Positions 3,204 to 49,231 of a stretch of DNA of 60,758 nt are shown piece after piece. A program made the translations under genes and the position numbers. The stretch's first letter is position 1; every line of letters starts with the position of its first letter. Below the pieces are notes generated by a model that worked only from the letters and a program-made list of their open reading frames with translations, was not told where the DNA came from and searched no databases. The stretch is from Pirellula staleyi DSM 6068 (lineage in GTDB: Bacteria; Planctomycetota; Planctomycetia; Pirellulales; Pirellulaceae). The stretch lies in the NCBI GenBank assembly GCA_945870455.1, contig CAMBSL010000001.1, positions 1 through 60,758 of the forward strand, given 5' to 3'.

Positions 3204-4495
3204 AGAAGTTATTTGTACTTGGTTCTTGGTTCTTGGTTTACTCGTTCCTTGTTCAAGCGACCGCCTTTAGCGAGGAACCAAGAACGAAGAACCAAGAACC
3301 AGGAATCGAAGTCTTCCGGCCCGAGGTGGGGAAATTTCCTCCGCTGGAAAAGTCGCTCTCTTATCGAGGCGAACTGGTGTTCGTGGATCATGCCAACCGC
3401 CGCGGCAGCGTCCGCGTGCAAGGAGCGGGGATGTTTTTTCGAAACGATCCCCATCCCTTCGCCATGTTGCCCTACGGCATCATCCGCTATCACGGCGCAC
3501 CAGCGGACCTGCGCGACATCCCGCTCGGCACCGTGATGCATGTCCGAGCCTTCCTCCCGCCGGACCCGAAGACATCCTCTGTGCCGGTATTGCCAATAGA
3601 CAGTAGGACGAAAGACGCGAACCACAACCGTGGACCGGGTATCTTCCCCGCCGAGAACCACGTCCTGCTCCTAGAAGACGAGCCCAGCCACTGCCTTCGC
3701 GAGGGAAAGGTCTGGAAGCTCAAAGAAGTGGACCTCAAAAATTTGCAGGGTACGATCGTCGCCAGCCTCGAACCAAAGCAAGCCGGAGACAGCAAGTCGA
3801 CCGAGGAAAAGATGACCTGTGATGCCGCCACCCGTATCTGGCGAGGTCGCGAAAGCCTCAGCATGGAGGAACTCGTCGCCGAAGGCGCGTGGCCTGCAGA
3901 AGGGAAAAAAACCCTCGGTGGCCAGGCCGTCTTGCTCGGCATCACCTGGAAACCCACACCGGATGGCGTGTTCACCCGGTTCCACATCTCGGACATCTGG
4001 CTGGACGACGACGCAATGCAACGCGCCGCCCGAAATCAAACCGCAGTGCACAAGGCCTTCATCCGTAGCCGTTGGATGCCCGCCTGGATCGACGCCGTCG
4101 AGTATGGCAAGTTCGGTCGCGCGACCGTGATCGCAACTTTGTTCGGTGGCATGGACGCAACGCTTTACGCCGATTTCAAAAAAGATGTCTCCGCCACGAT
4201 GAATGCATCCGAGAACACGTTGAAGCACCTGGGCGGGGATTATGGCCCCGCGCACATGGCATCCAAAGGCCCCATCGTCGAAGTTATCAAGTCGACTGGC
4301 GAAGTGCCTCTGGGAAGCAGTGGCATTCAAATCCGTTTTGAGACAGACCTCATCATCGAAGGCATCCGTCCGGGCAGAGTCGTCCGTGTCTGTCCCGCCA
4401 GTTGGCCCCAGGTCAACGTGCCTCGGGAGGAATTCCTGGGCGATGGTAGCCACGAAGACCGCTTCCCGACCCCGGCCATCTTCCCGAAATACTAA
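3200..4495 (+). CDS. Secreted hypothetical protein; signal peptide partly encoded by a heptamer-repeat element
   Basis: 431-aa ORF with ATGA overlap on the upstream stop. Coding-like composition. Confidence 0.8.
3212..3310. repeat. In-frame inverted heptamer-repeat element ((TTGGTTC)n ... (GAACCAA)n)
   Basis: Left arm about 3212-3255 and right arm about 3273-3310, translated as [14 protein letters not shown] and [11 protein letters not shown]. Confidence 0.9.
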
Positions 4496-4510
4496 TGTAT
4501 CTTCGTGTAT

Positions 4511-4628
4511 CTTCGTTCTTGGTTCCTCGTTCTGAGTTCTTCGTTGCCCAGCAAGACGACGAACATCCAAAATTGGAAACCAAGAACCAAGAACCAAGAA
4601 CTAAGAACTAAGAACTAAGAACTAAAAC
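4511..4628. repeat. Intergenic inverted heptamer-repeat element (same family as 1264-1847)
   Basis: Left arm 4511-4546. Right arm (AACCAAG)3(AACTAAG)3AACTAAA at 4578-4626, 2 nt before ATG 4629. Confidence 0.93.
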
Positions 4629-6335: not shown

Positions 6336-6361
6336 ACCGGAGATTCCCAACTCCCATTACT

Positions 6362-6424
6362 TCATCAATCATCAATCATCAATCATCAATCATCAATCAT
6401 CAATCATCAATCATCAATCATCAA
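6362..6424. repeat. Perfect (TCATCAA)x9 tandem repeat
   Basis: Read directly. Same heptamer class as the right arm at 10673-10714. Confidence 0.97.
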
Positions 6425-6427
6425 ACC

Positions 6428-6516
6428 GTAGGATGGCCCTCCCGGGCCGTCGTTCCGTTCAACGACACCACACTTGCACTCCGTGCAATGCCGACGGCCC
6501 GGAAGGGCCGTGCTAC
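6428..6516. repeat. GTAG-class REP doublet (REPIN-like)
   Basis: GTAGGATGGCCCTCCCGGGCCGTC ... GACGGCCCGGAAGGGCCGTGCTAC inverted pair. Confidence 0.88.
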
Positions 6517-9237
6517 GGGGGGACTGTGGTCATTTCTTTGAGCTGTCTATGGCTGATGGCCGTGTGCGTACTATGCTCCGTTACTGCGCCGAGTGTAACT
6601 GCGTCAGACCTGCCTATGCCGATTCGCGAACTGATCCAGCGAACATGTTTCGACTGCCATGACGGCGCATCGGCAGAGGGTGGACTGGACCTCACGTCAC
6701 TGACCTTCGATCTGGCTGACAGACGACTGCGTGAGCGTTGGATTCTGATTCATGATCGTGTCAAGTCAGGTGAGATGCCGCCTGTTGGTTCGAGTCTCAC
6801 AGACGGTGAGCGAAAGTCACTGGTGAAGTCACTGCACGACTTCGTTGCAAAAGCAGACGGTGAGGATGTTGTGGCCAACGGTCGCGGGCCCTTGCGACGA
6901 CTCACACGAGATGAATACGAACAGAATCTGCGGGACGTACTCCAACTTCCACTGCTGGATATTCGCGACATGCTGCCGGAAGATCGTGAGGCCCATCGGT
7001 TCAACAAGACCGCATCCGCACTCGACATGTCACGCGTGCAGTTGGCTGCTTACCTCGATGCCGCCGACGCGGCGTTGCGACAGGCGATGGCTGGCGGACC
7101 GGAGCCGCCACCTGTCACCAGGTATCGCGCGGCAGGGACACAGCTATTTTCGGCCACCAACACTTTTGGTGAACGCGAAGCAATGTTCTTTGCGAAGGAC
7201 AATAAGGGTGTTGAAGCGAAGGAACTCGACAAACTGAAAGACGATCCGGCACTGGAACTCGCGCTGTTTCGGTCAGCTCATTGGCCCTATTTTGGATATC
7301 CTCGCGGCTTCGTTGTTGGCAAGAACGTAGAACGGCCTTTTCAGGCCGTCCTAGAACGTGCAGATAGGACGGCCTGGAAAGGCCGTCCTACGGAATACTT
7401 CGAGTACCGAGTCCGCTTTTCGGCCCGGGCCGTATTGCAGACCGAAGGGTATCAGCTAAAGCCGTCAACCGATCCGGTGCCGATGACGTTTCGCGCGCGA
7501 AAGCCGTCTGGCCCGGATGTCTCTGGCGATGTTCGGGCAACGGGTGGCATCATCGACATTCAGCCCGAGCCCAGAGTTTACGAGACCACCATTCGTTTGC
7601 TACCGACGGAGACATTTGAGTACAGCCTGTTAGGTCTGCCAGTCCCACTGGCTCGCAATGTCAACGGTGGCCCGCCGACATATCGTTATCCGCCGTTTCC
7701 CAATGATGGCCAACCGGGAGTTGCCTTTCAATGGCTGGAAGTTGAAGGACCGATCGGGGCGGAATCATGGCCGCCGCCGTCACACCGCGTTTTGTTTGAT
7801 GACAGTGGGATAGGCTTCCAGCCTGTCGATAATCCGAATAATCCTGACAGGCAGGATGCCTATCCCACGGAAGCCAAACGCCTGCTTCGGCGCTTCGTTG
7901 AGATCGCTGCTCGCGAACCAGTACCGGAAGACGCATTGCTGCGGTTCGAACAACTCATTCTCAAGCGACTCGAGCAGGGAAGCTCGTTCCCAGAGGCGAT
8001 GCTCGTCGGCTATAAGGCCTTCCTGAGCTCCAGCCACTTCCTCTATCTGCGTGAACCCGTAGGACGGCCTTTCCAGGCCGTCGAAAACAACGTGAGTGTA
8101 CGCGACGGCCAGGAATGGCCATCCTACGCCATCGCATCACGGCTATCGCACTTCCTGACGAATACCAGACCCGATGCAACGCTCATGGCACTTGCCGCGG
8201 CCGGAAAACTCCGCGACGCCAAGACGCTCCGCGGCGAAACCGAACGACTGATCGACAGCCCCGGCTTCGATCGCTTCGTTCAGAACTTCACCAACTACTG
8301 GCTCGACCTGCGAAACATCCGCCGCGACGAGCCCGACATTCGGCTGCACCCTGAATATCGCTTCGATGATTACTTGATCGAATCGATGCAGCGCGAGACC
8401 CAGACATTTTTTACTGCGATGATTCGAGACAACCTGCCGTCGAGTGTGTTGATCGATGCGGACTTTGTGTACGCAAATGATCGGCTCGCTCGGCACTACG
8501 GATTGGTACCGGTCATGGGGTCGGAGATGCAAAAGATTGTATTGCCCAATGACAGTCCCTACGGCGGTCTGTTGACGCAGGCGGCTATTCTCAAGGTGAC
8601 CGCCAACGGCACATCGACGTCGCCGGTCATCCGCGGCGCGTGGATCATGGAGCGTTTGATCGGCCAGCCACCCCCGCCTCCGCCAGCGAGCGTCCCTGCT
8701 GTCGAGCCGGACATTCGCGGCGCGAAGACCATACGCGAATTGCTGGCTCTTCATGCTAAATCGGAATCGTGTGCCGGTTGTCATGCAAGGTTTGATCCCG
8801 TTGGTCTGGCATTGGAAAACTTCGACATCCTCGGCGCCTGGCGAACACGCTATCGCGGACTCGAAGCGGGCGAACGCATTACCGGGATAGACCGTGCCGG
8901 CCACGATTTCGCCTATGCACTTGCTGAACCAGTGAACGCCAGCGGTCAACTGCTGGACGGTCGACGCTTTCAAGACATCCACGAACTGAAGGCCATTCTT
9001 GCAGGCAATCCTCGACAATTGGCTCGCAGTCTTCTGCATCAATTCACGCTGTATGCGACCGGAACTCCGGTGCGATTTGCGGATCGTGCCGAAATCGAAT
9101 CGATCCTCGATGGCTGCGAAGCAGATAGCTACCGTGTCCGTGATCTTGTGCATGCATTGGTGCAGGGCAGTATCTTTGTAGGACGGCCTTTCCAGGCAGT
9201 CGAGAATAACACAAGAATTCAAGAATTACACGAATGA
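6433..9237 (+). CDS. PSCyt1/DUF1587/1595/1592/1588/1585 cytochrome c domain protein carrying three in-frame REP doublets; true start probably downstream (about 6526-6557)
   Basis: CFDCH, LRRLTRDEYEQNLRD, AIASRLSHFL, GGLLTQAAILKVTANG..SPVIRGAW, CAGCH. The annotated ATG lies inside a REP. Confidence 0.88.
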   Translation: MALPGRRSVQRHHTCTPCNADGPEGPCYGGTVVISLSCLWLMAVCVLCSVTAPSVTASDLPMPIRELIQRTCFDCHDGASAEGGLDLTSLTFDLADRRLRERWILIHDRVKSGEMPPVGSSLTDGERKSLVKSLHDFVAKADGEDVVANGRGPLRRLTRDEYEQNLRDVLQLPLLDIRDMLPEDREAHRFNKTASALDMSRVQLAAYLDAADAALRQAMAGGPEPPPVTRYRAAGTQLFSATNTFGEREAMFFAKDNKGVEAKELDKLKDDPALELALFRSAHWPYFGYPRGFVVGKNVERPFQAVLERADRTAWKGRPTEYFEYRVRFSARAVLQTEGYQLKPSTDPVPMTFRARKPSGPDVSGDVRATGGIIDIQPEPRVYETTIRLLPTETFEYSLLGLPVPLARNVNGGPPTYRYPPFPNDGQPGVAFQWLEVEGPIGAESWPPPSHRVLFDDSGIGFQPVDNPNNPDRQDAYPTEAKRLLRRFVEIAAREPVPEDALLRFEQLILKRLEQGSSFPEAMLVGYKAFLSSSHFLYLREPVGRPFQAVENNVSVRDGQEWPSYAIASRLSHFLTNTRPDATLMALAAAGKLRDAKTLRGETERLIDSPGFDRFVQNFTNYWLDLRNIRRDEPDIRLHPEYRFDDYLIESMQRETQTFFTAMIRDNLPSSVLIDADFVYANDRLARHYGLVPVMGSEMQKIVLPNDSPYGGLLTQAAILKVTANGTSTSPVIRGAWIMERLIGQPPPPPPASVPAVEPDIRGAKTIRELLALHAKSESCAGCHARFDPVGLALENFDILGAWRTRYRGLEAGERITGIDRAGHDFAYALAEPVNASGQLLDGRRFQDIHELKAILAGNPRQLARSLLHQFTLYATGTPVRFADRAEIESILDGCEADSYRVRDLVHALVQGSIFVGRPFQAVENNTRIQELHE
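7327..7391. repeat. In-frame GTAG REP doublet
   Basis: GTAGAACGGCCTTTTCAGGCCGTC ... GACGGCCTGGAAAGGCCGTCCTAC, translated VERPFQAV...TAWKGRPT. Confidence 0.93.
7805..7868. repeat. In-frame GTGG REP doublet (second family)
   Basis: GTGGGATAGGCTTCCAGCCTGTC ... GACAGGCAGGATGCCTATCCCAC, translated GIGFQPV...DRQDAYPT. Confidence 0.92.
8059..8127. repeat. In-frame GTAG REP doublet
   Basis: GTAGGACGGCCTTTCCAGGCCGTC ... GACGGCCAGGAATGGCCATCCTAC, translated VGRPFQAV...DGQEWPSY. Confidence 0.93.
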
Positions 9238-9282
9238 TGTTAGTTCGCAATGAAGAGCGACGGCCTAGAAAGGCCGTCCTAC
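9178..9282. repeat. GTAG REP doublet spanning the DUF1592/DUF1552 gene junction
   Basis: GTAGGACGGCCTTTCCAGGCAGTC ... GACGGCCTAGAAAGGCCGTCCTAC. The ATGA stop/start overlap lies in the spacer. Confidence 0.92.
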
Positions 9283-10565
9283 ATGGGCAAATCAATCGCC
9301 GTCGGCTTCTTCGCGGTGCGGGAGTCACGCTTGCGCTACCGTTTCTGGACAGCCTGCGTTCGGTTTCAGCGAAGCAACCGGATGCAGAACGGCCGCGGCG
9401 GATGCTGTTGATCTCGAACAATCTTGGCGTGTTGCCCAAGCCGTTCTTTCCCGAGGGGACGGGACGAGACTACGCACTCTCGCCGTACCTCGCTGATCTG
9501 GCCGAGTTCCGCGATGACTTCACGGTGATCAGTGGCCTCTCACATCCTGATGTAGACGGTGGTCACAGCACGGAAAACTGCTTTCTCACCGCAACGCGTG
9601 GTCCGACCAAGAGCGGCTTTCGCAATACGATCTCGGTCGATCAATTTGCCGCTGAACGGCTTGGCCCGGTGACTCGGTTTCCCACGCTCAACCTGGGCGT
9701 GAACATCGACAAGGCGAACCGCAGTCTTTCCTGGACGCGCGACGGCGTCTTGCTGCCCGCCGAAGATAGTGCCTCTACTCTGTTCCGCAAGATGTTCGTC
9801 CAGGGCGATCAGGCTGCAGTCGAGCGCCAGCTCCATCAACTTGACGAACGAGGCAGCATTCTCGATACGCTGCTGGATGACACGCGGCAGTTCCGCAGCA
9901 ACCTTGGTCGCGACGATCAAGCACGGCTCGACCAGTACCTCACATCCATCCGCGAAATCGAAGAGCGACTGCAGACCGCTCGTCAGTGGGAACTGCATAC
10001 GAAACCGACAACCGATCAGCAACCACCGGATGACATTCGCGACCAGAAGTTGTTCTTCGAGAAGTTCGACCTGATGCTGTCGATGGCGCGGCTGGCGCTG
10101 GAGTCGGATTCGACGCGGATTGTCACGCTGATGGTCGATGCCTTTGCGACTCCGGTCTTCAAACTGCATCCCGATCAGAACACGACCGATGGCTACCACA
10201 ATCTTAGCCATCATGGTCAGTCAGAATCGAAGGTCCAACAACTCATCGACGCCGATCACCGACAAATGACGCTGCTCCGAAAGCTGTTCGGACAGCTTGC
10301 CGAAACCCATGAAGGAGAAGAACGGTTGTTGGACCGCACGATGATCCTGTTCGGCAGCAACATGGGTGACGCCAACACGCACGACAACACGAACCTTCCG
10401 ATTCTGCTCGCTGGAGGCGGCTTCCAGCACGGCCAGCACCTCGCCTTCCGACGGGATCACAACAAACCGCTGTGCAACCTTTTCGTCACGATGCTGCAGC
10501 ACCTTGGCATCGAGGAAGACACGTTTGGCAGCAGCACTGGCACATTGAACGAGTTGAATTCATGA
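9234..10565 (+). CDS. DUF1552 (HXXSHH) domain protein
   Basis: INRRRLLRGAGVTLALPFLDS, YHNLSHHG, HDNTNLPILLAGG. Confidence 0.92.
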   Translation: MMLVRNEERRPRKAVLHGQINRRRLLRGAGVTLALPFLDSLRSVSAKQPDAERPRRMLLISNNLGVLPKPFFPEGTGRDYALSPYLADLAEFRDDFTVISGLSHPDVDGGHSTENCFLTATRGPTKSGFRNTISVDQFAAERLGPVTRFPTLNLGVNIDKANRSLSWTRDGVLLPAEDSASTLFRKMFVQGDQAAVERQLHQLDERGSILDTLLDDTRQFRSNLGRDDQARLDQYLTSIREIEERLQTARQWELHTKPTTDQQPPDDIRDQKLFFEKFDLMLSMARLALESDSTRIVTLMVDAFATPVFKLHPDQNTTDGYHNLSHHGQSESKVQQLIDADHRQMTLLRKLFGQLAETHEGEERLLDRTMILFGSNMGDANTHDNTNLPILLAGGGFQHGQHLAFRRDHNKPLCNLFVTMLQHLGIEEDTFGSSTGTLNELNS

Positions 10566-12415
10566 TACACCTCACCGTCGAAAACAGGATTGATGATTGT
10601 CGATTGAGGTTTGCTGATTTCCGAAGTACAGGTGCTCGCTGTGTCGGGCGTTGGCAACTACGGCCCTTGCCCCATCGCCAATCAAAGATCAGAAATCAAC
10701 AATCATCCATCACTCCAACTGCCGCGAATCGGCCCAGGTCTTCCAATTCGTCTCAAAAGACATGTAACTTGATGTTCTTCATCGCCTTGCTGCTTGCACC
10801 GATCGATGTGATTCAGGCTCAAGACGCTATCCCTGGAAATACCGACCGATCCACCATCGCGGCTCTCTTTGCAAAAGGGGCGGACCATGGCGGCACGGTG
10901 ACGATTCCTCCAGGTGACTATTACCTCGACGGTACTGAACCAATTCCGCTGGCTTCACGCACCACCGTGTTTGCGTATGGAACGCGGTTTCATCTGCCTG
11001 AGAAGCTCGGTGATCAGGCTCGGGCGGTTGTCTTCGCTGGTGAGAACGTGAGCGACTTTCGCTGGTTTGGTGGTCACTTTGTCGGACGTGTGTTTGACCC
11101 GGACAGGACAGACAATTCATGGGAACCGAACGCGAACACCCGAGGCATCCTGATCACCACCACTTCCGGCGGCGAAACTGCCAACCTGACCTTTCGCGAT
11201 GTTAGTTCGGATAGCATGGCCGGCGCGGTCATCACGGTTCTAGGCGCTGCGAAGCCGGGCAGTGATCGACAGATCGACACTTATGCCCGCAACGTGACCG
11301 TAGAGAACTGCACGCTTGAGCGCAGTGGCAAGTTCATGTGGGACTACGGTTATCTCTGGCAGATCACCGTCTGGCCAGAAGATTACAACGAAGCCGAACG
11401 GGCGCTCGCCGCGAAATATTTCCCGCCGGAATATATCCGCGGACCGGTTCGAATGAAGCAGGGTGACGACCGCGTCTACTTCGTCAATGCGAAACCCCTC
11501 CCAATGTCGGAGCGAGATTATCGGGGACAGCAATCGCTTTGTTTCTACGATGATGATCTTCCGTCGAACATTGTCAGAGGCCGGCAGTATTTCATTGTGG
11601 CGAGCGAACCTGAATGCATCCGTATTGCGGACCAGCCAGGCGGCACGCCGATCCAGTTCGCCAGCGACTCCGGGGTAAACTCAAAGCTGATGGTTCCGTT
11701 GTTTAATGCTCACCTTGCACTTTACGCGCCGAAGGGAAGCGGACCGGGCAAAGGTGCACTGGACCTTGTTGGCTGCGAGGCTGTGATTGTGCGAGGCTGT
11801 CGGCTCAGCGCGCTCGGCGACACGATGCACATTCAAAAAAGCCAGAACATTGTCTTCAGTGGCAATCACATCACCGGCTCGCGGATGGGTGCGTTTTTTC
11901 TGGCCGAGTACTGTCGCAACGCGGTCGTGACCGGCAACACTGTCGATGGCACCAACGGCTCGCGGGTGATCAGCGTTGAGAAGTCCTGCGAAGATGTGAC
12001 CATCGTTGGCAACACCTTCCGCAATGGCGGCCGGGGTTCGTGGATCAATCAGCCGAGAAACTTTGTGCTGGCGGACAACATCTTTGTCAACAACACGACC
12101 AAGTGCGAACATGACCCGCGTCGCGGACGACGCAGCTTTGTCACCGGCGACTATGAAGAATATGCGGAACTCTATTTCACGACTCACGAACCAAACGGTC
12201 GCTACGGCAACGTCACGGTTCGCGGCAATATCTTCAGCAGCGGCGACAAGGCCTCGCACGCCATCACCTTCGCCCCCGGCGGCGACACGCTGCTCCTGAC
12301 CGACAACATCTTTCGGGGCAAGGTCCGCACCATCGCGCCGGCCACCGGCTGCACGAACGTTACGGTCCGCCAAAACGTGGGCGCGATATTTATGAACGAA
12401 ATGAACTCACCATGA
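10562..12415 (+). CDS. Right-handed parallel beta-helix (pectin-lyase-like) protein; start 10562 (ATGA overlap) or about 10772
   Basis: GGTVTIPPGDY, repeated IVFSGNHI/VVTGNTV/TIVGNTF/VLADNIF PbH1-like strands, signal-like MFFIALLLAPIDVIQA. Confidence 0.82.
   Translation: MIHLTVENRIDDCRLRFADFRSTGARCVGRWQLRPLPHRQSKIRNQQSSITPTAANRPRSSNSSQKTCNLMFFIALLLAPIDVIQAQDAIPGNTDRSTIAALFAKGADHGGTVTIPPGDYYLDGTEPIPLASRTTVFAYGTRFHLPEKLGDQARAVVFAGENVSDFRWFGGHFVGRVFDPDRTDNSWEPNANTRGILITTTSGGETANLTFRDVSSDSMAGAVITVLGAAKPGSDRQIDTYARNVTVENCTLERSGKFMWDYGYLWQITVWPEDYNEAERALAAKYFPPEYIRGPVRMKQGDDRVYFVNAKPLPMSERDYRGQQSLCFYDDDLPSNIVRGRQYFIVASEPECIRIADQPGGTPIQFASDSGVNSKLMVPLFNAHLALYAPKGSGPGKGALDLVGCEAVIVRGCRLSALGDTMHIQKSQNIVFSGNHITGSRMGAFFLAEYCRNAVVTGNTVDGTNGSRVISVEKSCEDVTIVGNTFRNGGRGSWINQPRNFVLADNIFVNNTTKCEHDPRRGRRSFVTGDYEEYAELYFTTHEPNGRYGNVTVRGNIFSSGDKASHAITFAPGGDTLLLTDNIFRGKVRTIAPATGCTNVTVRQNVGAIFMNEMNSP
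10588..10714. repeat. Inverted heptamer-repeat element, GATTGNN/NAATCNN family
   Basis: Left arm GATTGAT GATTGTC GATTGAG GTTTGCT GATTTCC. Right arm CATCGCC AATCAAA GATCAGA AATCAAC AATCATC CATCACT. The frame stays open through it. Confidence 0.82.
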
Positions 12416-18560: not shown

Positions 18561-19679
18561 ATGATGTCGCTTTATACAACCCTGATTCGTCCATGGCTCT
18601 TCACGCTTGATGCGGAAACGGCGCATCATGGGACGGTTGAGGCGTGTCGCATCGCAGGGGCGCTACCGTGGATGCCGCAGATCACCCGGGCCTGTTTGGA
18701 GTTCACTGCACCGGAATTGCAGTGCAAGGTCGCGGGGCTGAGGTTTGATCACCCTATCGGTCTCGCGGCAGGTTGGGACAAGAGCGCACGCGCCTTGCGA
18801 ATGCTGGATCACCTTGGCTTCGCCTTTGCTGAAATCGGTTCCATCTCCGCAAAGCCATCGCAGGGAAATCCGCAGCCGCGTCTGTTCCGGCTGCCGCGTG
18901 ATCGGGCCATCATCGTAAACTATGGTCTGCCCAACGACGGCGCGGAGGCTATCTCGCTTCGGCTAGCTGCCTACCGAACACGAGTGCCGCTCGGAGTGAA
19001 CATCGTTAAAACCAACTTGGGCCCCAGTGCTCCCGCGTGCAGTGATGATGCCATTCTCGCCGACTACGAACGCAGCGTCTCACTGGTGCATCGCCATGCC
19101 GACTATCTCATGCTCAACCTGAGCTGTCCCAATGCTGCCGGTGGGAAGGACTTCTTTGCCCAGCCCGGCAACATCACCCGCCTGCTGCAGCAACTGAAAC
19201 CGCTCGATCTGACCTGCCCAGTGTTTTTGAAAGTCGCCCCAGGTGATGATGCGGCGGAACACGAACGCCTCCTTTTGGAAGTGGACGCCTTCGACTTCGT
19301 GCGCGGTTTCTCCTTCAATCTCCCGCCCGGTAAACCTGCCACCCTGCGCCTCACCACACCGCGCAGTGCATGGGAGCAGCTTCCCGGTGCCGTGGCTGGC
19401 AAACCGGTCGAAGACTTGATCAACCGCTGCATCGCCGGCCTAGCCACGCGGATTAACCGCCAGCGTCATGTCATCATCGGTACCGGTGGCGTCTTCACGG
19501 CAGCGGATGCCTACCGCAAACTTCGCCTCGGCGCCTCGCTAGTGCAAATCTACACGGCCCTCATCTATGAAGGCCCCGGCGTCATTGCACAGATAAACCG
19601 AGGGCTTTGCAGCCTGCTCTTGAAGGATGGGTTTAGGAATGTGAACGAGGCCGTCGGTGCAGATCTCCACCATGCATAA
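18561..19679 (+). CDS. pyrD: Dihydroorotate dehydrogenase, quinone-dependent (class 2) type
   Basis: LIRPWLFTLDAETAH, PIGLAAGWDK, GNPQPRLFRL, NLSCPN, IIGTGGV, GASLVQIYTALIYEGP. Confidence 0.9.
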   Translation: MMSLYTTLIRPWLFTLDAETAHHGTVEACRIAGALPWMPQITRACLEFTAPELQCKVAGLRFDHPIGLAAGWDKSARALRMLDHLGFAFAEIGSISAKPSQGNPQPRLFRLPRDRAIIVNYGLPNDGAEAISLRLAAYRTRVPLGVNIVKTNLGPSAPACSDDAILADYERSVSLVHRHADYLMLNLSCPNAAGGKDFFAQPGNITRLLQQLKPLDLTCPVFLKVAPGDDAAEHERLLLEVDAFDFVRGFSFNLPPGKPATLRLTTPRSAWEQLPGAVAGKPVEDLINRCIAGLATRINRQRHVIIGTGGVFTAADAYRKLRLGASLVQIYTALIYEGPGVIAQINRGLCSLLLKDGFRNVNEAVGADLHHA

Positions 19680-19682
19680 TTC

Positions 19683-19756
19683 GTAGGACAGCCTTTTCAG
19701 GCCGTCGTGACTGCAAAAAAACGGCCAATTTCGACGCCCTAGAAAGTGCGTCCTAC
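19683..19756. repeat. Degenerate intergenic GTAG REP doublet (same family as 7327/8059/9178)
   Basis: GTAGGACAGCCTTTTCAGGCCGTC ... GACGCCCTAGAAAGTGCGTCCTAC, 4 nt after the pyrD stop. Confidence 0.85.
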
Positions 19757-34345: not shown

Positions 34346-34680
34346 GGGACTGAATGCCAATTGTGGACTCGCGGTCCATGGGCTCGCGCCCATGGCTACA
34401 TCCTGTCGCCGCCTTGCGGCTAAATGCAATCGAGTCCAAACGGGACGGCATGTTGTAGCCATGGGCGCGAGCCCATGGTTGGGCGCGAGCCCATGGTCAC
34501 GGGGCACCTGCCCCGTCCGAAGCCCCAACGACCCAACGGGGCGACATGATACAACTTTCCTGTCGTCCCTTCGGGACTGAATGCCAATTGTGGACTCGCG
34601 GTCCATGGGCTCGCGTTCATGGCTACATCCTGTCGCCGCCTTGCGGCTAAATGCAATCGATTCGCGGCTAAATGCAATTT
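34346..34680. repeat. REP array next to the Y1 transposase: two 88-bp direct repeats (34346-34433, 34573-34660) plus inverted GTAG-CCATGGGCGCGAGCCCATGG units
   Basis: Read directly. Confidence 0.9.
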
Positions 34681-34697
34681 AACATGTTGGTGCGAGT

Positions 34698-35162
34698 TCA
34701 TTGAATGAACTCCTGTTCGAAAACGTATTTTGGGTCGTACTGGATCTGATGGCGTTCCAACATACCAATAAATTCTTCCTGAAACGTTTGTTTGCGGTGG
34801 TGTTCTTCCTGGTTGAGGATGTATGTGCGGACTGCCCCCTGCTGTGACTCGCTTACGGAAAACGCACCATACCCTTTCTGCCATTCGAAGGGGAATCGTG
34901 GTCTGATATTTTCGTTTACCATTTTCGATGAGTTCGTTTTGATCAATCGTAAAACGTCCGAGAACGCAATTGTGGGACTTAGCTTCGCCAGCAAATGAAC
35001 ATGATCGTTCACACCACCCATACACAACAAAGTCCCCTTGTTTTCGCGAATGATTCCGCCAACATAACCATATAGCTCGTCCTCCCACGTTTTTTCGATC
35101 GTTGGCTTACGAAACTTAGTACTGTAAACGATATGAAAAAGGAGATTCGTGAACGTTGACAT
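34698..35162 (-). CDS. tnpA: IS200/IS605-family Y1 (HUH) transposase, probably REP-associated (RAYT-like)
   Basis: HIVYSTKFR, DHVHLL (HUH), WQKGYGAFSVS, YILNQEEHH (catalytic Tyr). No tnpB. REP array adjacent. Confidence 0.92.
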   Translation of the reverse strand: MSTFTNLLFHIVYSTKFRKPTIEKTWEDELYGYVGGIIRENKGTLLCMGGVNDHVHLLAKLSPTIAFSDVLRLIKTNSSKMVNENIRPRFPFEWQKGYGAFSVSESQQGAVRTYILNQEEHHRKQTFQEEFIGMLERHQIQYDPKYVFEQEFIQ

Positions 35163-48910: not shown

Positions 48911-49231
48911 ATGAGCAGGCACTTTTGGATCGCATTCGTCGTAATGCTCGGCATGCAGCAGTCGTCGCGAGCATTGGACATTCCGTTACATCCCACCGAG
49001 GCACGGATCGTTGCGCAGATCATCGGCGTCGAGGGACATGCGGTGGAAGTGGCCGAGGAGCCCGGTTGGGCGAAGGCAGGCGTCATCAAGCGACTCAAGG
49101 AACTGAGCGTCGAGACCACCAACCTGAAGTCTTGGGGAGTTCGCGGTACCGAAAACAAAGGGCTAAGCTTCAGTTTCATTTACGACGCCAATGGTCGCGC
49201 GCTGGCGCTCACCATCGAGGAACTCATATGA
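48911..49231 (+). CDS. Small secreted hypothetical protein, possibly a truncated N-terminus of a larger protein
   Basis: GGAG ribosome-binding site, signal peptide, ATGA coupling to the next gene. Confidence 0.55.
   Translation: MSRHFWIAFVVMLGMQQSSRALDIPLHPTEARIVAQIIGVEGHAVEVAEEPGWAKAGVIKRLKELSVETTNLKSWGVRGTENKGLSFSFIYDANGRALALTIEELI

Follow-up and report, generated by a model that had tools for sequence, protein, structure and literature searches.

Repetitive extragenic palindromes (REPs) may be arranged as inverted doublets that form hairpins, known as REPINs, and the cluster of each family adjoins the gene of its REP-associated tyrosine transposase (RAYT) (Bertels and Rainey 2011, PMC3116915; this and the other papers are cited from the parts of their text that were available). 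Binding of REPs and cleavage between C and T have been described for other RAYTs, and the placement of REPs by RAYTs in vivo is poorly understood (PMC8266576). REPs are also found inside genes. Di Nocera et al. (2013, PMC3733652) reported about 70 in-frame GTAG REPs, both singles and dimers, in Opitutus terrae, a bacterium of the Planctomycetes–Verrucomicrobia–Chlamydiae (PVC) group in which they are most frequent; the genes are sometimes hit twice, also by two families (Oter_0009, Oter_3168), and a neutral linker location was proposed. Here we describe a gene of this kind in a stretch of 60,758 nucleotides assigned to Pirellula staleyi DSM 6068 (GCA_945870455.1, contig CAMBSL010000001.1; the window). 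This gene, referred to as the host gene, carries three REP doublets of two families, A (GTAG) and B (GTGG), in one reading frame. These RAYT-type doublets replace host DNA in frame at three predicted surface loops; we think it probable that they were deposited in other planctomycetes and gathered into one allele by recombination and horizontal transfer.

In-frame palindromes are known from Rickettsia as well. The Rickettsia palindromic elements (RPEs) are palindromic repeats that lie in frame within genes and have been suggested to be a source of new protein sequence; the RPE-1 type is about 105–150 bp long and encodes a conserved peptide (Ogata et al. 2000, 2002, as described in PMC3184786 and PMC10969869). 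The contribution of such palindromes to protein function was called unexplored for RPEs in a 2024 review (PMC10969869).

The doublets of the host gene resemble the intragenic GTAG REPs of O. terrae in that GTAG or GTGG dimers are read in frame as 20–30 residues, each REP lying wholly inside a real open reading frame (ORF) of more than 120 residues. They differ in number: three internal doublets and two at the gene ends, against at most two per gene in the available portion of the O. terrae table. New relative to the available text of that study are the empty alleles, the segregating states, an adjoining RAYT-like gene and a test of selection. An earlier note on this DNA, made from the letters alone, implied that translated REPs were a surprise; in-frame GTAG singles and dimers, and two families in one gene, had been published for O. 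terrae, and the host gene is a well-documented instance of an already published kind of insertion. Families A and B may already have been named in that work, and DUF1592, VGRPFQ and SGIGFQ do not occur in the portion of its supplementary text that was searched. Like REPINs, the doublets form hairpins and cluster by a RAYT; unlike REPINs, which are described from extragenic space, this cluster reaches into coding loops and its doublets replace host bases. The analogy to RPEs drawn in the earlier note holds for behaviour, in that palindromes are fused in frame inside a gene, but not for kind, as these are GTAG/GTGG doublets of 64–69 bp with variable spacers, read in several frames and with a RAYT-like partner, rather than elements of 105–150 bp with one conserved peptide. 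Full-text searching, which does not reach most subscription papers, turned up no paper about the host gene, none on repeated REP hits at a single loop for which empty alleles exist and none on selection acting on a peptide that derives from a REP.

Structure of the doublets

The three internal doublets are 65, 64 and 69 bp long and lie within one uninterrupted ORF (Table 1), as the earlier note described; two belong to family A (sites 1 and 3) and one to family B (site 2). Their arms measure about 23–24 nt, with a GTAG or GTGG tag and a stem of 6–7 bp, and in each doublet the two inverted REPs fold as a single long hairpin of −39 to −48 kcal/mol (z = −10.6, −7.4 and −7.5 against dinucleotide shuffles). 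In the genome under study (G000; an assembly in 386 contigs, 92.5% complete) 33 arms belong to family A, grouped in 18 clusters, and 65 to family B, grouped in 45 (≤4 mismatches). The identification as RAYT-type REPs is borne out by the tagged arms, the stem-loops, the dispersed copies and the presence of family A beside RAYT-like genes. Two family A doublets at the ends of the gene had been overlooked; with these, five doublets of the two families lie within 2.86 kb, each with a different spacer. Every site is spanned, with its doublet, by contigs of public runs that are distinct from the possible source run (X4 record 14 at site 1, X4 record 16 at site 2 and X2 record 14 at site 3), which argues against an assembly artefact.

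Table 1. Coordinates of the repeats and genes at the host locus (positions in the window)
Feature	Position	Strand	Description
Site 1	7316..7401	+	86 nt including the family A doublet (7327–7391); replaces a 14-nt host stretch; net +24 codons
Site 2	7804..7869	+	Family B (GTGG) doublet (7805–7868) plus 2 nt; replaces 36 host nt; net +10 codons
Site 3	8059..8127	+	Family A doublet, located between DUF1595 and DUF1592; replaces 33 host nt; net +12 codons
5' family A doublet	6428..6516		Contains ATG 6433; either N-terminus or 5' untranslated region
3' family A doublet	9178..9282		Spans the host-gene stop and the DUF1552-gene start; lengthens the C-terminus and the N-terminus, respectively
Host gene	6433..9237	+	934 codons from the first ATG; PSCyt1 + DUF1587/1595/1592/1588/1585 protein
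DUF1552 (HXXSHH) gene	9234..10565	+	Overlaps the host-gene stop (ATGA)
ATCAATC tandem array, eight-fold	6364..6419	+	Just 5' of the 5' doublet

Empty alleles and replacement of host sequence

Homologues of the host protein (120 compared, 65–93% identity) show the empty state of each site. Site 1 is an empty 18-residue segment in 103 of the 120, and in 11 a family A insert can be recognised, in one case in decayed form; family B occupies site 2 in 23 and family A occupies site 3 in 11, and the same three inserts are present in three separate records (P0001, P0002 and P0006). The window is longer than the empty allele L036 by 72, 30 and 36 nt at sites 1, 2 and 3. The frame was thus restored by loss or gain of flanking sequence, as had been supposed; the assumption of a simple insertion did not survive, host sequence having been replaced at each site. 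As to the paralogues by which the earlier note had placed the doublets in linker loops, both peptides quoted come from the paralogue at 48925, and the one at 1–1260, cut by the window start, begins at PSD5 and informs only site 3. The empty joint at site 1 (7315–7402 with the 14 host letters) occurs in runs X3, X7, X19 and X8. The 34-residue site-1 loops of L041, P0062, P0068, P0069, P0075 and P0083, of which L041 has no palindrome, may be decayed inserts and were not counted as inserts.

Longer alleles of site 3 (53 and 59 residues) retain host residues on either side, and left-trimmed and right-trimmed forms also exist. In L042, 30 nt that are absent from the right side of the window's site 3 sit between two in-frame copies of CTAC, and the window's site 3 appears to be a trimmed version of longer alleles such as this one; stepwise in-frame trimming of the inserts is suggested more generally. 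CTAC is present at the empty site 1 in some alleles, and the junctions have been remodelled by replacement and trimming.

The inserts are probably translated as surface loops. An AlphaFold2 model (114-row alignment; mean predicted local distance difference test score (pLDDT) 75.6, predicted template modelling score (pTM) 0.80) places all three in coil, in keeping with the loop positions first proposed, with low confidence in the middle of the inserts (pLDDT <50 at model residues 273–283, 436–438 and 517–531). Site 2 is modelled as coil between two helices and its right arm as an extension of the next helix. An RNA library yielded one contig, from a relative (23 differences in 202 bases, about 89% identity; depth 2.9), that runs across site 3 and includes the doublet. 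In the RNA runs X19 and X20 only relatives are present, at low depth, and X20 covers none of the three sites. Other inverted repeats occupy the same loops in L078 and L057 (site 2) and in L061 (site 3). In L252:4470–4609, which is the locus of L058, the site-2 family B insert itself contains a family A doublet in place of its right arm, and the 67-residue segment is in frame.

Signs of selection on the site-2 peptide

The first five codons of site 2 (7804–7818) encode SGIGF. Selection on these codons was assessed in 13 distinct alleles with DNA, taken from 16 motif-bearing loci among 153 after three duplicates were left out; they range from perfect doublets to alleles with no hairpin, the arms being near-perfect in the clade of the window. 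Seven of 10 synonymous states were seen, compared with one of 32 non-synonymous states (p = 3e-5), and the synonymous excess persists for transitions and transversions separately. In 63 further family B arms of the genome, these positions show 7 synonymous to 23 non-synonymous states (p = 0.002), while the right arm, read in its own frame, gave 6 of 15 against 14 of 45. Since neither the genomic arms nor the right arm show the excess, the bias in SGIGF is not a property of the repeat.

The motif SG(I/V)G(F/Y) is retained in all 23 family B alleles among the 120 proteins, and P0059 is the only possible family B remnant without it in the 120 segments, judged by eye. The hairpin is lost, with z about 0, in L055, L063, L067, L082 and L152, and the peptide is still there. 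As judged from the codon states, SGIGF is shown statistically to be conserved as protein while the hairpin decays. A derivation of SGIGF as a copy of a beta strand of the host loop was not supported, the AlphaFold2 model showing coil. In most of 86 rows the empty site-2 loop has the pattern (F/L/I)-G-x-(E/D)-(V/I), and only in the 38-residue alleles does this match at the G and the last hydrophobic residue.

Distribution among relatives

Seven of the eight combinations of filled and empty sites were seen among orthologues, the unseen one being sites 1 and 2 without site 3. P0007, the sister of the window protein, is without inserts at sites 1 and 3, and alleles in X7 and X8 that are about 92–95% identical are empty at site 1 and filled at sites 2 and 3 (the 95%-identical one is X7 record 25). 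L042 has all three inserts at 84% DNA identity to the window, and an identical copy of its RAYT is present in G388, which belongs to another order. Approximately unbiased (AU) tests, for which 46 rows of the 117-row core alignment were used, reject a single carrier clade at each site (p = 1e-95, 9e-57 and 2e-4 for sites 1, 2 and 3), with 9, 7 and 7 state changes on these rows. Because excision cannot restore the host bases that were replaced, recombination between alleles, together with some independent insertions that have other junctions, appears to be the simplest reading of this mosaic.

RAYT-like genes at the locus

In L042 and L058 a RAYT-like ORF lies between the host gene and the DUF1552 gene and is flanked by family A doublets; the two ORFs match NF047646 with E values of 2.6e-21 and 8.2e-19, below the 80-bit cut-off. 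A tyrosine transposase flanked by the same REP is thus found for family A at these two loci, and for a variant at G399. The 3' doublet of the window corresponds to L042's upstream doublet in its left flank and to L042's downstream doublet in its spacer and right flank; it would be either a deletion scar of the RAYT or its pre-insertion site. Family A arms crowd at the host locus in all five genomes tested (10 of 11 arms in G062, 12 of 28 in G061, 8 of 20 in G063, 8 of 32 in G064 and 2 of 2 in G065).

Several candidates for a resident source in G000 were set aside. C4 and C357 encode the closest relatives of the family A RAYT, at 44–47% identity, but are flanked by another REP, and ten more candidate RAYT loci have no A or B arm within 700 bp. 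For family B, only a two-base variant flanks a RAYT-like ORF, on C373. The Y1_Tnp gene of the window (34698–35162) scores best as IS200-type and has other repeats beside it; across 34376–35162 it is flanked by another GTAG family, with at least three close relatives elsewhere in the genome.

Family A also occurs in the genome as nine near-identical 69-bp copies (contigs C10, C13, C125, C160, C167, C191, C214, C254 and C374), in which the doublet forms one unit whose spacer is constant. These copies have about 37 bp in common on the left and up to 43 bp on the right of the doublet, and they are often nested within other repeats. Together these parts make up a composite element, about 150 bp in length, whose spread seems to be recent, though no cognate RAYT was found in the assembly. 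A further family A doublet of the window (19683–19756) lies directly after the stop of the gene at 18561–19679.

The host gene as a hotspot

Short REP-like repeat segments number 358 across the genome, and 9 of them are located deep within frames of at least 250 codons; with their 18 and 45 clusters, the two families are therefore repeats of many dispersed, mostly extragenic copies. Three of the nine are in the host gene, and the chance of any one gene receiving three of nine is about 4e-5. The remaining six comprise four in frames with Pfam hits (one weak) and two with poor coding flanks. A separate scan for doublets adds two more genes, on C341 and C62, with one repeat each; the scans cover repeats inside open frames, so that frameshifting intragenic REPs are outside these counts. 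Single in-frame inserts of this kind are found on C306, C341, C13, C182, C90 and C62, the carriers among them including DUF1549 and DUF1553 proteins, a type I restriction R subunit, BatD, a membrane protein and a sulfatase.

The earlier note regarded the gene as a hotspot. The excess stands, but a process of this genome is not shown, since no family A RAYT was found in the 92.5% complete assembly, the host gene is accessory and a three-insert allele occurs in another order. Near-full-length matches to this PSCyt/DUF1592 gene, at 89–91%, are present in 2 of 66 other genomes of the genus, and 2 further genomes have short or distant matches. The hotspot looks, from this distribution, to be inherited rather than local.

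Host gene and neighbourhood

The host protein has the domain order PSCyt1, PSD3, PSD5, PSD4, PSCyt3 and PSD2, with all Pfam domains above cut-off, and its gene forms the typical two-gene layout with the DUF1552 partner downstream. A fold search of the PDB with the model of the protein gave 0 matches at E ≤ 0.001. Purifying selection is evident from the ratio of non-synonymous to synonymous substitution rates (dN/dS), which is 0.07–0.17 against 10 orthologues, and the gene is to be considered intact and functional as judged by sequence; the decaying gene that the earlier note had allowed for is not borne out.

The start of the gene is uncertain, the candidates being ATG 6433 (within the 5' doublet), GTG 6526 and ATG 6556. 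L039 has the same 5' doublet in frame behind an upstream ATG that follows GGAG. In the window (6346–6432) this opening ATG is ACT and the ATCAATC array has expanded to eight copies; the new in-frame ATG at 6433 is supplied by a change in the 5' doublet. At the other end of the gene, the spacer of the 3' doublet houses the ATGA stop/start overlap, giving both proteins repeat-derived ends, and the DUF1552 protein has additional arginines ahead of its RRRLLRG motif from the same doublet. Heptamer-based inverted repeats of the AACCAAG and ATCAATC types occur at gene starts or between genes at 3208–3305, 4502–4606 and 10588–10711. Among relatives, L060:4001–5450 is a broken allele in which an internal deletion takes out the entire region of sites 1–3 and an extra stop is present, and the genes upstream of an orthologue (L252:2–3133, L247:3384–4841) also have in-frame doublets, of three families.

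Origin of the inserts

If the doublets were deposited in other planctomycetes and gathered by exchange, as we favour, a RAYT-like enzyme downstream of the gene, as in L042 and L058, would have placed copies of its REPs in the DNA around it. Insertions that broke the frame or fell in other parts of the gene would have been purged, so that unrelated families recur in the same loops. Long first insertions would then have been trimmed in frame, at site 3 between the two in-frame CTAC copies, and filled and empty states may have been exchanged by homologous recombination. SGIGF may have taken over the structural role of the lost host loop, while the inserts at sites 1 and 3 are likely to be tolerated passengers. 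A bolder version, which we put forward only tentatively, holds that a resident RAYT writes doublets into neighbouring genes, that filled loops swap as cassettes across planctomycete orders and that SGIGF is now a needed piece of the fold after the death of its palindrome.

A number of observations weigh against this scheme. The insertion junctions show no clean break between C and T, and no sharp recombination tracts emerged from flank identity near the sites or from segment trees; repeated independent insertion accounts for part of the mosaic. A RAYT adjoins the gene in only two distinct loci scanned (L042 and L058, the latter repeated by L146 and L147), and its presence does not explain family B or the remaining families. 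At only one of eight other loci with related RAYTs is a doublet found inside a long frame (L240, near the frame end), so RAYT adjacency alone does not yield in-frame inserts; the other families in the same loops and in neighbouring genes mean that loop tolerance counts as much as RAYT proximity. At site 2 the three codons that follow SGIGF, encoding QPV, look neutral (3 of 7 synonymous against 6 of 19 non-synonymous states), as does the right arm, and the 13 alleles are related and were chosen by an SG-I-G-F/Y motif, which biases the selection test. Finally, the sole RNA contig bridging a doublet is that of a relative, has low depth and may be DNA.

Some of these points would be expected if the inserts were simply tolerated. 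Doublets would then have landed at random in repeat-rich donors and survived in three tolerant loops, all of them including SGIGF being neutral, and the neighbouring RAYT would be a passenger that entered an existing doublet. The several families in the same loops, the in-frame doublets of other families in the neighbouring genes of L252 and L247, the mostly extragenic doublets of related RAYTs elsewhere and the motif-selected sample at site 2 all fit this explanation. Against it stand the crowding of family A arms at the locus in five genomes and the synonymous excess of SGIGF, which is not seen in the genomic copies or the right arm. In addition, none of the long site-2 inserts of the 120 proteins, inspected by eye, combined a family B right arm or spacer with loss of the left motif, except possibly that of P0059. 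We regard such complete neutrality as unlikely, though it is the strongest of the alternatives.

The stability of the hairpins and the near-perfect arms in the clade of the window could instead point to a role in RNA or DNA, such as stabilising the mRNA, making ribosomes pause between domains or being removed from the transcript, the peptides being incidental; sites 2 and 3 lie on either side of the DUF1595 domain. This is improbable, as the older alleles that have lost the hairpin keep the peptide and most homologues have no insert. Removal from the transcript is opposed by the site-3 doublet kept in the RNA-library contig, and the sole joint across site 1, with its 14 host letters, is also present in DNA runs, which makes it an allele and not a splice. 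That the gene is dead or dying, or the repeats mis-assembled, might be suggested by the ACT in place of L039's upstream ATG, by the broken allele L060 with its large internal deletion and by an assembly in 386 contigs, yet the low dN/dS, the same inserts in P0001, P0002 and P0006 and the contigs of other runs that span the sites largely refute this.

Least credible is an origin of SGIGF as an old host loop that was later converted into a family B-like repeat: distant orthologues do have SGIGF without the palindrome, an outcome that the earlier note had named as telling against insertion and that is thus partly realised, but these alleles still match the consensus right arm at 14–19 of 23 bases in a graded series, so that erosion of the repeat rather than a host origin explains them, the outgroup alleles have different loops of 20, 28 or 38–39 residues at site 2, and family B has 45 clusters in the genome and a variant beside a RAYT-like ORF.

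The reach of these findings is limited in that the phenomenon itself is published and the host protein is of DUF type, with no known function. The locus offers a RAYT-like enzyme, its REP and matched empty and filled targets, which makes the question of REP placement testable. Site 2, in turn, combines a signal of selection with five residues that can be mutated, by which the passage from palindrome to protein function can be addressed.

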